Below the pieces are notes generated by a model that saw only the letters and a list, made by a program, of their open reading frames with translations, did no database searches and was not told where the DNA came from. From assembly GCA_029263395.1 (NCBI GenBank), contig JAJCXO010000184.1, forward strand, positions 39,838 to 103,837: a stretch of DNA of 64,000 nucleotides, read 5' to 3'. The position numbers and the translations under genes are program-made. This stretch comes from Acidobacteriota bacterium. GTDB taxonomy: Bacteria > Acidobacteriota > Thermoanaerobaculia > Multivoradales > J023. This document shows, one piece after another, positions 55,759-59,414 of the stretch (the first letter of the stretch is position 1; each line of letters begins with the position of its first letter).

Positions 55759-56925
55759 CTAAGCCCCGGCATTCGGTAACACACGAACTTGCTGACCGTC
55801 ACGCAAGCGACGCACACCGGCGGTGATCAACAAATCGCCATGGGACAAACCGTCGAGGACTTCGATCCCTTCCGGGGTCAAATCGCCAACCGTCACCGCA
55901 CGCCGACCGGCTTGTCCATCCTCGCTAGTCTCACCGCTTCGTTCGAGTACAAACACGAAACGACCATCACGATCTTCCCCTACGGCCTCGGCCGGCACGA
56001 AGATATGCTCCAGCTCGTCGCTCGACGCAAACCGAAAGTCGACACTGGCCGCCATACCGGATCGTACCTGGCTGTCATCGCTGCTCAGCCGCACCGTCAC
56101 TGGATAGCTCGCACCGGCACTGGTCGCCGCAACACCAACCTCAGTGACGACACCTGAGAACTTCCCATCTGGCAGCGCGTCGAAGGTCACGTCGACCTTG
56201 TCGCCCTCCCGGACACGAGCGATCAATACTTCGGGCATCGCAACTTCGACCTCGGGCTGGGCGCCAGAGGCCAACAAGGCTACCGCCTGGCCTACCCCTA
56301 CATTCTCGTTCTCTTCAATCAAGACAGAGGCGATGGCCCCCGCAACGGGCGCCGTCAATCGCGCATAGCCGAGCTGCCGGCGAGCCAACTCGCGGCGTTG
56401 GTTGGCCACCGTAACCTGTGCTCGGCTGGACTCGGACTGAGCACGAGCCGCATCGAGATCGCTTTTGGCGGCGTTTTGATTCTCGTAAAGACCCCGCATT
56501 CGATCGTAGTCGGCGTCAGCTTTGCGTTCGGAAGCCCGGGCCTGAGCCAACGTAGCTTCAGCCTCCTTGAGCTGCAAATCGAGATCGGTGGCATCTATGC
56601 GAGCGAGCTCCTGACCCTTCCGCACCGTTTCGCCAACCACCATCGAAACCGACTCGACGGTGCCTCCCACCCGAAAACTCAGCTGCGATTCGACGCCAGC
56701 GCGGGCTGTGCCGGAGAACGTCCGTACGCGTCGTTCGCCGCTGACGACTACTTCTTGATATCGGACTGGACGCAACTCGACTTTGACCTCTGCAGTGTCG
56801 CCACCACAGCCAGATCCCAACCCAGCCAACAGGGCAGCCCCTAGCAGGGTCATTGGGCCGCGAAACTGTGATCGTTCGCGACCCTGTGCCCGTTCGCAGA
56901 CCTGTGATCGTTGCCTGATCATCAT
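55759..56925 (-). CDS. efflux RND periplasmic adaptor subunit (MFP/HlyD family)
   Basis: The track ORF reaches 57045. ATG at 56925 overlaps the TolC stop as ATGA, consistent with translational coupling. A lipoprotein signal MTLLGAALLAGLGSGC is present. Coiled-coil, lipoyl and beta-barrel adaptor motifs are present (ARIDATDLDLQLKEAEA..., ARLTAPVAGAIASV). Confidence 0.8.
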   Translation of the reverse strand: MMIRQRSQVCERAQGRERSQFRGPMTLLGAALLAGLGSGCGGDTAEVKVELRPVRYQEVVVSGERRVRTFSGTARAGVESQLSFRVGGTVESVSMVVGETVRKGQELARIDATDLDLQLKEAEATLAQARASERKADADYDRMRGLYENQNAAKSDLDAARAQSESSRAQVTVANQRRELARRQLGYARLTAPVAGAIASVLIEENENVGVGQAVALLASGAQPEVEVAMPEVLIARVREGDKVDVTFDALPDGKFSGVVTEVGVAATSAGASYPVTVRLSSDDSQVRSGMAASVDFRFASSDELEHIFVPAEAVGEDRDGRFVFVLERSGETSEDGQAGRRAVTVGDLTPEGIEVLDGLSHGDLLITAGVRRLRDGQQVRVLPNAGA

Positions 56926-59414
56926 CGTACTACTCTCCTGGGCCTTGATGCCGCCCTCGGCTCGAGACCATTGTCCCGGAAAAACTTCTGCAAGCGACTG
57001 AACCAGGCTGCCTGCTCCTGGGGTGTGCGCATGAACTCGAACCAATTCACCGACCGCTCGACGTTGATCAGTTCAATAAAAAACTGGTAAAGCGCAGAGG
57101 CAGCTGCCAGATCCGCTGACAGCGAAGCGCTTTGAGCGTCAATCAGGTCGAGCACATCGACGGCACCTCGGGAATAGGCATCGGTCACCAGCTCGAGGTT
57201 CTTTGTTGCCGCGTCCGCTGCTTGCTGGCTCAACGCGATGCCTGAGAAGGCAGCATTGGTCAAATAGAGATTCGACCGGATCAGCTGATCGAGTCGCTCA
57301 GCGAGTGCAGCGCGTTGCAACTCGAGGTTGGCAATCGTCTCCTCGGCCTCGATCACGTCGGCACTGCGCGATCCGCCCGAATACAACGGCAGGGTCGCCT
57401 GCAGGGCAAAGCTCCAGCTGGTGTCTTCAACCTCGGAAAGGAGGTCCGCCCCTTCCCCATCGCGCTCGAGAACATGATCCAGCTGGCCTTGCAGCGCCAC
57501 CTCCGGGCTCCAAAAAGAGCGGCGAGCGCTGAGCAGCAGCCGTTTCTGGAGCTCGATCGCCGAGTCGAGCTGCATTAGCTCCGGGGCGCGCCCCAACCCT
57601 TCGTCGACCATGAATTGCCGGAAGATCTCGAAATGCAGTTGCGTGCCGATGTAAGGCAACACCTGATCTCGACTCCGGAAAAGAGACAGTTGTTCTCGGG
57701 GTGATCGCGGGGCGGACGCCGCCTCGACCGCCGCCTCCGCCGCAGTCGGCTGCGACAGCGGCGTGTCCAACAACTGCTCCAGGGTGATGTCTTCGGTCCG
57801 GTAACCCTCTTCGAGGCGCTCGTGCATCAGCCGATTGAGGGCAATTTTGGCTTGATAGGTTGAAGCCCGGGAATCCACCAAATCGCGGCGGGCGGTTGCC
57901 ACCTCGCTCTCCCAGCGATAAACCTCACCCGGCCCCGCCGTTCCCACGGAACGACGCACTCGCGCCAGCTCGAGATTCGATCGCGAAACATCGAGGTTAC
58001 TCTTGCGGATCTCCTCCACCGTGCCGGACAACAACACGTTCATGTAGGAAATCATCGCCTCTTGCGCGATGTCGAGTCGGAGTTGGTCGAGTTCCTGCTC
58101 GCGCGTGAGCTGGGCCGATCCCTGGACCGCGATGTTGGCCAGAGCAGGCTCGGAATACAGCAGCTGCGTCAACGTCAGACTGCCGGTCCAAGTGCGCTCA
58201 GCCTGAACTGCAAAATTGGACGATGCGCGGTCAGAGTCGATCTGTACACCTGAAAACCCGCTAGAAATCTGCGGACGATAGGTGGACCGAGCCCGGACGA
58301 CATTCTGGATTCCGGCAGCCACCTCCCGTTCCTTGGCCGCAATATCCAAATTGGCTTCGATCGCCAACTCGACCGCTTCTTCAATCGACAGCACCTTGCG
58401 GTAGTCGGGTTCTTCGTTCAGCAAGTCGGCCTCGGTCAGCAAATGCCAAGCCGGATAGGCGTTGATCTTGCGGGCGGTTGCCATGTTGATGGTCAACCGC
58501 TGACGATCGGGCACATTCACCGGTATTTCACCCGCATCTTCGCCCAACAGAATCCGTTGCACATTGAGGGCGATACGCCTGCTGAGACGATCATAAAACG
58601 CTCCATCTCGTTGGCCCGCCAACAGGCCGTTGGCGACCTCGGCAACACCAAATATCGAAAAGCTGGGAAGCTCCTTGGCGTTGATCCCTTCGATGAACCG
58701 CAGGCGTTCGCTGTCTGGTAGGTGCAACAGCGGTGCAACATAAACCGCCTCGGCATCGTCAGGAATAGAGGCCAGACCTTCATCCACCGAATCTCCGATG
58801 GCAACGATGTCAAAACCGAGACCCCGACGGTCGGCGGCTCGCCGAAGCTGCTCCCCGAGTTTTGGTACCGCTTCAACAAACCAACGATTGAAGATCAACG
58901 TCAACTTCTCGAATGGAACAATCTCGAGAAAGAGATCGATATCGCGTTCGAAAGTCGACGGAAACGCCAAATAGTTGAGATTCTTGACGCCGCTAGCACC
59001 ATCCAGTTCAGGCAAGTTCTGCAGCTCGGCATCAATCACAAAACCGGCGATCACCGGCTTCGACAACTCCGAACGACAACAGAACGTTTGCGACGCCACC
59101 ACTCCCAGAGCCAGGATCAAGTCGACCTCCGGATCTGCTAGCAGGGTATCGATGGTGGCCTGAATTCCGGTCTCACTCCAGTCGCCGGACAGAATATCTT
59201 GATCGCTGAACCGGACATCGAACTCGCCCTCGGTCAGCGTCAGGATCTCGCCCTTGATCTGCTCGAAGAGTTGGGTCGTGACGCTGGCATCGCCGTCGAA
59301 AACGACACCAACCCGCACCACCTTGCCATCGGCCATCACCGGTGGCGCCCAAAGCCAGATGGCAAGGAGCAACAATAGAAAACCCTGGCGTCTATAAATC
59401 ATGATTCGCCTCAT
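56922..59414 (-). CDS. TolC-family outer-membrane efflux protein with about 330-aa N-terminal periplasmic-binding-protein-like extension
   Basis: The C-terminal 480 aa carry typical OMP efflux repeats (two halves with coiled-coil plus beta segments). The N-terminal region resembles a COG2984-type ABC substrate-binding fold. A signal peptide is present. Confidence 0.7.
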   Translation of the reverse strand: MRRIMIYRRQGFLLLLLAIWLWAPPVMADGKVVRVGVVFDGDASVTTQLFEQIKGEILTLTEGEFDVRFSDQDILSGDWSETGIQATIDTLLADPEVDLILALGVVASQTFCCRSELSKPVIAGFVIDAELQNLPELDGASGVKNLNYLAFPSTFERDIDLFLEIVPFEKLTLIFNRWFVEAVPKLGEQLRRAADRRGLGFDIVAIGDSVDEGLASIPDDAEAVYVAPLLHLPDSERLRFIEGINAKELPSFSIFGVAEVANGLLAGQRDGAFYDRLSRRIALNVQRILLGEDAGEIPVNVPDRQRLTINMATARKINAYPAWHLLTEADLLNEEPDYRKVLSIEEAVELAIEANLDIAAKEREVAAGIQNVVRARSTYRPQISSGFSGVQIDSDRASSNFAVQAERTWTGSLTLTQLLYSEPALANIAVQGSAQLTREQELDQLRLDIAQEAMISYMNVLLSGTVEEIRKSNLDVSRSNLELARVRRSVGTAGPGEVYRWESEVATARRDLVDSRASTYQAKIALNRLMHERLEEGYRTEDITLEQLLDTPLSQPTAAEAAVEAASAPRSPREQLSLFRSRDQVLPYIGTQLHFEIFRQFMVDEGLGRAPELMQLDSAIELQKRLLLSARRSFWSPEVALQGQLDHVLERDGEGADLLSEVEDTSWSFALQATLPLYSGGSRSADVIEAEETIANLELQRAALAERLDQLIRSNLYLTNAAFSGIALSQQAADAATKNLELVTDAYSRGAVDVLDLIDAQSASLSADLAAASALYQFFIELINVERSVNWFEFMRTPQEQAAWFSRLQKFFRDNGLEPRAASRPRRVVR

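Follow-up and report, generated by a model that had tools for sequence, protein, structure and literature searches.

The 64,000-nt stretch of contig JAJCXO010000184.1 from an Acidobacteriota bacterium (hereafter the window) encodes a TolC-type exit duct that carries a PF04392-type 'Venus-flytrap' binding-protein domain (the N-domain) at its mature N-terminus. The fusion gene is the first of a genuine ancient three-gene efflux module, in which it is followed by a MexJ/TriAB-like periplasmic adaptor and a MexK/TriC-like inner-membrane pump of the resistance-nodulation-division (RND) type. We favour, tentatively, the interpretation that the N-domain is an accessory or regulatory module built into the duct and binding a ligand, and that its occupancy would alter the duct's stability, its propensity to open or its engagement with the adaptor. 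The coordinates of the features are listed in Table 1.

The preliminary description of this DNA had reported an 830-residue outer-membrane factor, approximately 350 residues longer than TolC/OprM, and this size excess was correct. The gene starts with two in-frame ATG codons, four codons apart. As a GAGG sequence lies 6 nt 5' of the second ATG (at 59402), and as the database protein P0001, identical to the fusion protein, is called from the same Met with 826 amino acids, the true start is probably M5 and the product 826 amino acids long. A lipobox-like motif was found in just two of 97 family members. The tight operon described previously stood with respect to the channel-adaptor junction, where the TGA of the channel gene and the ATG of the adaptor gene share bases as ATGA, while the spacer from the adaptor TAG to the RND ATG was read as 15 nt instead of the 16 nt given before. 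The scan 5' of the fusion gene detected no promoter-like sites, and the terminator counts there were at the level of shuffled sequence.

Table 1. Coordinates of the fusion gene, its parts and the adjoining pump genes in the window
Feature	Position	Strand	Remarks
Whole fusion gene	56922..59414	(-)	One open frame, 830 codons from first ATG, no internal stop
Sec-type signal peptide, residues 1-28	59331..59414	(-)	...WAPPVMA|DGK in translation; no lipobox Cys
N-terminal two-lobed alpha/beta domain, residues 29-340	58395..59330	(-)	Divergent PF04392 (ABC_sub_bind / COG2984) class I binding-protein fold
C112-C113	59076..59081	(-)	End of helix after beta-strand 3; C112 in 70/97, C113 in 52/97
D128	59031..59033	(-)	Aligned to Asp of 'TDP' motif in 3LFT (HMMER); D in 92/97
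N145	58980..58982	(-)	Aligned to Asn of 'NVTG' hinge motif in 3LFT and 3LKV (HMMER); N in 96/97
Linker, residues 333-343 (11 residues), N-domain to TolC helix H1	58386..58418	(-)	Sequence variable, entropy 2.3 bits
Complete TolC-type channel protomer, residues 344-830	56925..58385	(-)	Two OEP repeats, four beta-strands, long helical hairpins
Variable low-confidence insert, residues ~545-585	57660..57782	(-)	Equatorial segment between repeats; pLDDT 61-77
Periplasmic adaptor (membrane-fusion protein), 388 residues	55759..56925	(-)	TIGR01730 at 6.8e-67
RND inner-membrane pump, 1047 residues	52600..55743	(-)	ACR_tran at 1e-164

The preliminary description had also likened the N-terminal region to a COG2984-type ATP-binding cassette (ABC) substrate-binding fold, and a binding-protein fold was indeed present. 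When the full-length protein was scanned against Pfam, ABC_sub_bind (PF04392) matched over residues 82-319 with an E-value of 7.4e-5 and 22.6 bits against a gathering score of 25.9. The whole protein thus fell below the cutoff, whereas the isolated N-domain, the region for which a PF04392 scan had been proposed at that stage, exceeded it with 26.4 bits. No family other than PF04392 was detected in the Pfam scan of the N-domain, and of 18 diverse family members 15 also matched PF04392 at E ≤ 0.01, the best of them at 1.6e-9. Comparison of the single N-domain sequence with the PDB sequences gave nothing meaningful, and a family profile, built from 97 full-length homologues, was needed to reach the relatives of the N-domain in the PDB. 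This profile matched the PF04392 structures 3LKV (1.1e-8), 3LFT (4e-4) and 6HNI (4e-3), and a profile of the N-domain only recovered the same three. The AlphaFold2 model of the N-domain alone, calculated with the 97-homologue alignment, had a predicted local distance difference test (pLDDT) score of 94.3, and its template modelling (TM) score was 0.73 against the closed liganded form of CD0873 and 0.59 against the open form. The structure comparison identified the model as a two-lobe class I fold closest to the solved PF04392 members, so that the possibility of a region lacking a binding-protein-like fold did not hold. Glutamate-receptor amino-terminal domains, class C G-protein-coupled receptors (GPCRs), LacI-family repressors and AmiC formed the second tier of structural matches.

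The remainder of the protein is a channel of ordinary type. The Pfam family OEP (PF02321) matched as two repeats over residues ~343-790 (E = 3e-36, 125.4 bits against a cutoff of 22), and the 97-homologue profile matched Escherichia coli TolC at 1.6e-27 and OprM at 4e-10. The NCBIfam model TIGR01844 gave 1e-28 and 100.4 bits, which did not reach the curated cutoff of 225.15; judged by sequence, the channel is TolC-like and, by the NCBI threshold, not a TIGR01844 member. The full-length AlphaFold2 model, calculated with the same alignment, showed a pLDDT of 90.5 and a predicted TM score (pTM) of 0.82, with predicted channel strands at residues 382-391, 407-420, 638-652 and 665-674 and helices of 69 and 67 residues. 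The modelled channel was superimposed on 1EK9, 7NG8 and 5BUN by Foldseek with TM scores of approximately 0.8 (normalised to TolC), and no solved structure found by Foldseek spanned both halves of the protein (TMq at most 0.45). Around the equatorial insert, only 4% of the positions in residues 530-610 were at least 90% conserved.

The fusion was widespread among homologues. More than 1000 homologues were found, the best 120 of which were all approximately 770-860 residues long with query coverage of 71-100% (at least 91% in 117 of them) and identity of 42-100%. Many were already labelled with both Pfam families in precomputed annotation, and some bore the JGI name 'outer membrane protein TolC/ABC-type uncharacterized transport system substrate-binding protein'. 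An exhaustive search with the N-domain only against 1.84 billion cluster representatives (50% identity clusters) gave 1818 matches at E ≤ 1e-3, 1290 at ≤ 1e-10 and 584 at ≤ 1e-30; the best 150 were mostly proteins of 770-830 residues with the domain at residues ~30-335. The OEP channel was present in 251 of 268 N-domain proteins, and the other 17 either ended inside or just after the domain or continued, after TolC helix H2, as an Arg/Pro/Gly-rich out-of-frame translation. Neither the 268 proteins nor the cluster-representative search yielded a free-standing member of this N-domain clade.

The GTDB scan, with one genome per species, gave 117 relatives, and the best 80 of the 117, all from metagenome-assembled genomes (MAGs), were examined as loci. 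Within Acidobacteriota the carriers belonged to Thermoanaerobaculia, Terriglobia, Vicinamibacterales and Aminicenantes. The other carriers in GTDB included Gemmatimonadota, Thermodesulfobacteriota, Latescibacterota, Krumholzibacteriia, Calditrichota, KSB1, Kapaibacterium and several orders of Gammaproteobacteria, among others; more than 10 phyla were represented by the 80 genomes, and the family also includes Zixibacteria. In this survey of related taxa, which the preliminary description had recommended, both halves lay in one uninterrupted frame at 71 of the 80 loci by a strict test, and six further loci failed the test solely because a BLAST segment overran the stop codon. The sole locus with an N-domain frame (460 residues) followed by an RND-like fragment and no channel was that of a Chromatiales MAG (L070, approximately 6569-8586), an arrangement that is probably a deletion or an assembly chimera. 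The statement that such a fusion is unusual thus holds in comparison with the characterised channels, but not in environmental genomes, where it forms a large old family.

These data bear on the alternative that a binding-protein gene and a TolC gene had been merged artificially by a frameshift in sequencing or assembly or by a gene-calling error. Such artefacts do occur among the database entries of the family: P0265 contains an internal signal peptide, as the upstream gene was read through, and P0211, P0229 and P0194 are frameshifted. The fusion in the window, however, occupies a single frame that recurs unbroken in independent assemblies from the above phyla, and it shows neither an internal signal peptide nor a start context at the junction. 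The short linker modelled as ordered and the lack of free-standing copies in the searches also argue against a merger, and the explanation by artefact is effectively refuted.

The gene order around the fusion was likewise conserved. The adaptor and RND genes were located directly 3' on the same strand in 50 of the 61 loci with enough downstream sequence, with an average RND identity of 60% across those loci. The identical order was seen when individual homologues were looked up in one Zixibacteria genome and two unclassified assemblies, and the channel gene stood alone in one large genome. Among solved pumps, the RND protein was closest to MexK (1e-182) and TriC (6VEJ, 3e-166), followed by MdtB (2e-69) and AcrB (~1e-57), and the closest solved relatives of the adaptor were TriAB (3.7e-41) and MexJ (9.2e-36). 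Neither a permease nor an ATPase of an ABC importer was detected among the scanned open reading frames (ORFs) of the window of at least 150-230 residues, nor among the conserved neighbours. The genes conserved beside the fusion at the related loci were those of the adaptor and the RND pump alone, and the N-domain, although folded like an ABC receptor, is judged from these scans not to act as one.

The genes flanking the module, SRPBCC and DUF2141 upstream and sulfatase and amidohydrolase downstream, were considered as parts of the operon and rejected, since they were not conserved at the other loci. The exceptions for the downstream pair were a 27%-identical sulfatase-like match on the opposite strand at one locus (L035) and an amidohydrolase fragment at another (L009). 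In the window, the sulfatase gene and then the amidohydrolase gene (50011-52587, minus strand) follow the pump, the former starting 12 nt after the RND stop codon, and the two may be co-transcribed with the pump here.

The position of the N-domain on the duct can be approached from the junction of the two halves. In the full-length model, the N-domain ends at residue ~332 and helix H1 starts at 344, and the linker between them had pLDDT values of 91-94, compared with 53-84 in the model of the N-domain only. A pTM of 0.82 would be hard to attain unless the two halves were confidently placed relative to each other. In TolC-type channels, H1 lies in the equatorial domain, from which the N-terminus of OprM also originates (PMC8277102). 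As the mature N-terminus and H1 of such channels sit in this domain, the trimer should, by analogy, carry three N-domains that form a collar around the equatorial belt, between the outer membrane and the tip at which the adaptor docks, and the tip itself would not be covered. The periplasmic tip, suggested earlier as the site of the extra domain, is unlikely on the same ground (PMC8277102). The equatorial domain of E. coli TolC is also where the lipoprotein YbjP binds in 3:3 stoichiometry (PMC13095208, PMC13082787); this belt is close to the peptidoglycan layer (PMC13095208, PMC13082787), and contact with peptidoglycan has been proposed (PMC13082787).

Conservation was then compared between the two halves. 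The mean pairwise identity was 0.48 for the N-domain and 0.52 for the channel, the positions at least 90% conserved accounted for 19% and 16%, respectively, and the identities of the two halves were correlated over pairs (r = 0.81), indicating that the domains co-evolved without shuffling. The N-domain, including its residues aligned to ligand-contact positions, is thus under purifying selection, which is as strong on the domain as on the channel. Within the N-domain, lobe 1 was defined as residues 32-145 and 270-332 and lobe 2 as residues 149-265, with boundaries set by analogy with the class I binding-protein topology. The positions at least 90% conserved made up 27% of lobe 1 and 8% of lobe 2, and the most conserved stretch of the whole protein was residues 270-332, adjoining the linker (33% of positions).

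The near-invariant polar residues D40, S108, D128, Q132, N145 and Y148 are located on the loops after beta-strands 1, 3 and 4 and at the hinge; D128, which follows beta-strand 4, would lie on a cleft loop by analogy. The solved PF04392 members bind aromatic amino acids, namely L-Trp in SP1069 (3LFT), L-Phe in VC_1101 (3LKV) and L-Tyr in CD0873 (6HNI) (PMC6816091, PMC10443332), and the mapping of cleft residues was restricted to those named in PMC6816091. By HMMER alignment, P228 corresponded to Pro-236 of CD0873. Position 274, aligned to the ligand-stacking Tyr-262/Tyr-279, was aromatic (F or Y) in 75 of 97 members, and the specificity position (Ala-246/Glu-263 in the solved relatives) was Gly in the N-domain. 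Exactly two Cys residues were present within the N-domain in 55 of the 97 members, and the C112-C113 pair could represent, in a periplasmic domain, a rare vicinal disulfide or a redox-sensitive pair.

Some relatives were extended further at the N-terminus, as a leader of at least 60 residues was found in eight of ~220 complete family proteins. Ahead of the N-domain, P0242 (1104 residues) has an additional region, a Pro/Glu-rich linker and a PG_binding_1 domain (3.5e-14), P0167 (881 residues) has a bacterial SH3 domain and a Pro-rich linker, and P0180 has an insertion of ~150 Pro/Thr-rich residues. These three extensions were accepted as real because each protein has a single signal peptide at the very N-terminus, while P0265 was rejected as a longer variant, being a gene-call fusion with an internal signal peptide. 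The added modules suggest that the N-terminal end of the fusion protein is a place where contact with the cell wall matters.

In the interpretation that we favour, the cleft would have kept the ability to bind a small ligand in the periplasm that bears an amino-acid-like (ammonium-bearing) group. Rigid packing on the body of the channel would hold lobe 1, above all residues 270-332 by the linker, while lobe 2 would be freer to move, and ligand occupancy would then be passed on to the duct, either to its stability or propensity to open or to its engagement with the adaptor, the N-domain being an accessory or regulatory subunit rather than the substrate receptor of the transporter. The cleft looks functional because the near-invariant polar residues stand on the cleft loops and the hinge, with residues aligned to ligand-contact positions, and because the model comes nearer to the closed, liganded CD0873 than to its open form. 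A stricter form, in which the duct is ligand-gated and clamshell closure of the three flytrap domains allosterically controls channel opening or adaptor engagement, seems unlikely. Several observations weigh against a sensing role. We know of no TolC-type duct that is regulated by a ligand. In place of the 'TP' of the canonical ATPAAQ motif the N-domain has hydrophobic residues, and since the Pfam score is also marginal, the pocket may have a different chemistry or have lost it. The conserved residues include Gly and Pro, for which a purely structural role could suffice, and the stretch 279-292/310-329 is also conserved in free-standing PF04392 proteins, so its conservation need not mean an interface with the channel. 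The rigid packing, the lobe assignment and the orientation of the cleft are all inferred indirectly, and the peptidoglycan-binding modules of the variants would point to anchoring as much as to sensing.

The three domains might instead form a ligand-independent structural collar that braces the trimer and positions or anchors the duct beneath the outer membrane, with a vestigial cleft, thereby doing in cis what the lipid anchor does for OprM or what YbjP does for TolC in trans. Attachment at the equatorial domain, as for the lipid-anchored N-terminus of OprM and for the 3:3 complex of YbjP (PMC8277102, PMC13095208, PMC13082787), would suit such a brace, as would the rarity of a lipobox in a family whose channel is TolC-like and not OprM-like, the rigid modelled linker with the high pTM, and the location of the most conserved stretch in lobe 1 next to the linker. 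A two-lobed domain of 310 residues would, however, be a costly brace, its fold is unlike that of YbjP (DUF3828) and has no lipid anchor, and a vestigial pocket is not expected to keep near-invariant polar residues at cleft and ligand-contact positions; we regard a structural or anchoring role as nearly as likely as the favoured one. A tether to peptidoglycan would combine features of the sensing module and the structural anchor, the pocket being repurposed to grip the amino-acid-like end of a stem peptide (e.g., the D-centre of meso-diaminopimelate) and to fix the duct to the wall at the equatorial belt. The solved relatives bind free amino acids via their amino and acid groups (PMC6816091, PMC10443332), the equivalents of the Asp (D128) and Asn (N145) are kept, the equatorial domain has been proposed to touch peptidoglycan (PMC13082787), and P0242 and P0167 add PG_binding_1 or bacterial SH3 ahead of the N-domain. 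The latter are, however, the two clear cases among ~220 complete proteins, a dedicated peptidoglycan-binding module would be redundant if the N-domain already bound the wall, and the N-domain has no sequence similarity to known peptidoglycan binders, which makes the tether quite improbable. Least credible is the capture of the pump's own substrate in the periplasm for delivery to, or concentration near, the pump. It would agree with the binding-protein fold and the strict linkage to one RND/adaptor clade, but the equatorial belt is remote from the inner-membrane porter domain, where RND pumps load, and the helical-barrel wall of TolC has no lateral entry (PMC8277102). With no hand-off route apparent, substrate capture is geometrically implausible and very unlikely.

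The window contained other multidomain genes apart from the efflux module. At 48-3481 (plus strand), the gene for an FtsX permease of MacB type, which has a periplasmic core domain, overlaps the next ORF, in which CrtC-like and lipocalin-like domains were recognised. Two fusions of a Ser/Thr protein kinase with a response-regulator receiver are encoded at 12115-13464 (plus strand) and 40333-41775 (minus strand) in opposite domain order (kinase-receiver and receiver-kinase). A 1045-residue protein (24061-27198, plus strand) combines a major facilitator superfamily transporter region with a spermine/spermidine-synthase domain, and at 37687-40262 (plus strand) the gene for an ArsR-type helix-turn-helix fused to an S-adenosylmethionine-dependent methyltransferase overlaps that for S-adenosylhomocysteine hydrolase by 4 nt. 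Tandem paralogous hybrid histidine kinases (7TMR-DISM membrane region, PAS, kinase and receiver; 44110-49842, minus strand) lie approximately 2.8 kb downstream of the pump operon, beyond the sulfatase and amidohydrolase genes. The ORFs at 61322-62644 (plus strand, 440 residues) and 63109-63795 (minus strand, 228 residues) had no Pfam match; in the former, a hydrophobic stretch at the N-terminus is accompanied by Gly/Ser/Thr/Ala-rich repeats that recall a beta-helix surface protein.

TolC-type ducts are regarded as passive shared exit pipes, the opening of which is dictated only by the adaptor, and accessory elements at the equatorial belt have been recognised only very recently (YbjP, 2025-2026). 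The fusion is visible in automated annotation and is a large, phylogenetically broad variant with ordinary component folds, the family comprising at least 584 clusters (50% identity, E ≤ 1e-30) and at least 117 species representatives. No publication on a TolC-type channel with a PF04392/COG2984 binding domain was found in the searchable literature, and the passages searched in a large review of tripartite pumps and in a survey of the TolC superfamily did not mention the architecture. What would be new is a full binding-protein domain hard-wired at the equatorial belt under selection as strong as that on the channel. Ligand binding, if true, would make this the first tripartite pump with a chemical input to its outer-membrane component; if the role is structural, it would be a third solution for positioning the duct, after lipidation and YbjP. 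The separable domain, the defined cleft residues and the adjacent cognate pump genes offer a clean experimental system.

Compared with E. coli TolC (1EK9), the fusion protein shares the two OEP repeats, four strands, helical hairpins, a Sec signal peptide and the lack of a lipid anchor, and its gene lies in an operon with those of an adaptor and an RND pump, whereas it has ~310 extra residues as a separate folded domain before H1 and a longer variable equatorial insert. The N-domain is 16-20% identical to SP1069 (3LFT), VC_1101 (3LKV) and CD0873 (6HNI), and is fused to a channel while those proteins are free or lipid-anchored. The nearest RND and adaptor pairs are those of MexJK-OprM/OpmH and TriABC-OpmH in Pseudomonas aeruginosa; the Pseudomonas MexJK and TriABC operons are not known to encode a channel of their own, whereas the fusion channel here is the operon's own first gene. 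In Bucl8 of Burkholderia pseudomallei/mallei, the collagen-like addition to the outer-membrane factor is C-terminal and extracellular, in contrast to the N-terminal, periplasmic addition of binding-protein fold in the fusion. Both have an extra non-channel region in the outer-membrane factor, as stated for Bucl8 in its report (PMC7682875), and MexJK and TriABC are listed in a review as paired with OprM or OpmH (PMC8277102). The complexes of YbjP with TolC (9V52, 9TG4 and 9QGY) provide a functional analogy only, with a globular 3:3 accessory at the equatorial domain that is compatible with both the open and the closed duct (PMC13095208, PMC13082787). As a small lipoprotein (DUF3828), YbjP is separate from the channel and has its anchor in the outer membrane, whereas the N-domain is fused to the channel, not lipidated, folded as a binding protein and approximately twice as large; the N-domain is thus not a DUF3828 member, though it may work like YbjP. 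In glutamate-receptor amino-terminal domains, class C GPCRs, LacI-family proteins and AmiC, which have the same superfold, closure of the clamshell controls a coupled effector, and a ligand-gated duct, if true, would be a bacterial outer-membrane counterpart of the glutamate-receptor and class C GPCR architecture that supplies a periplasmic chemical input to efflux.

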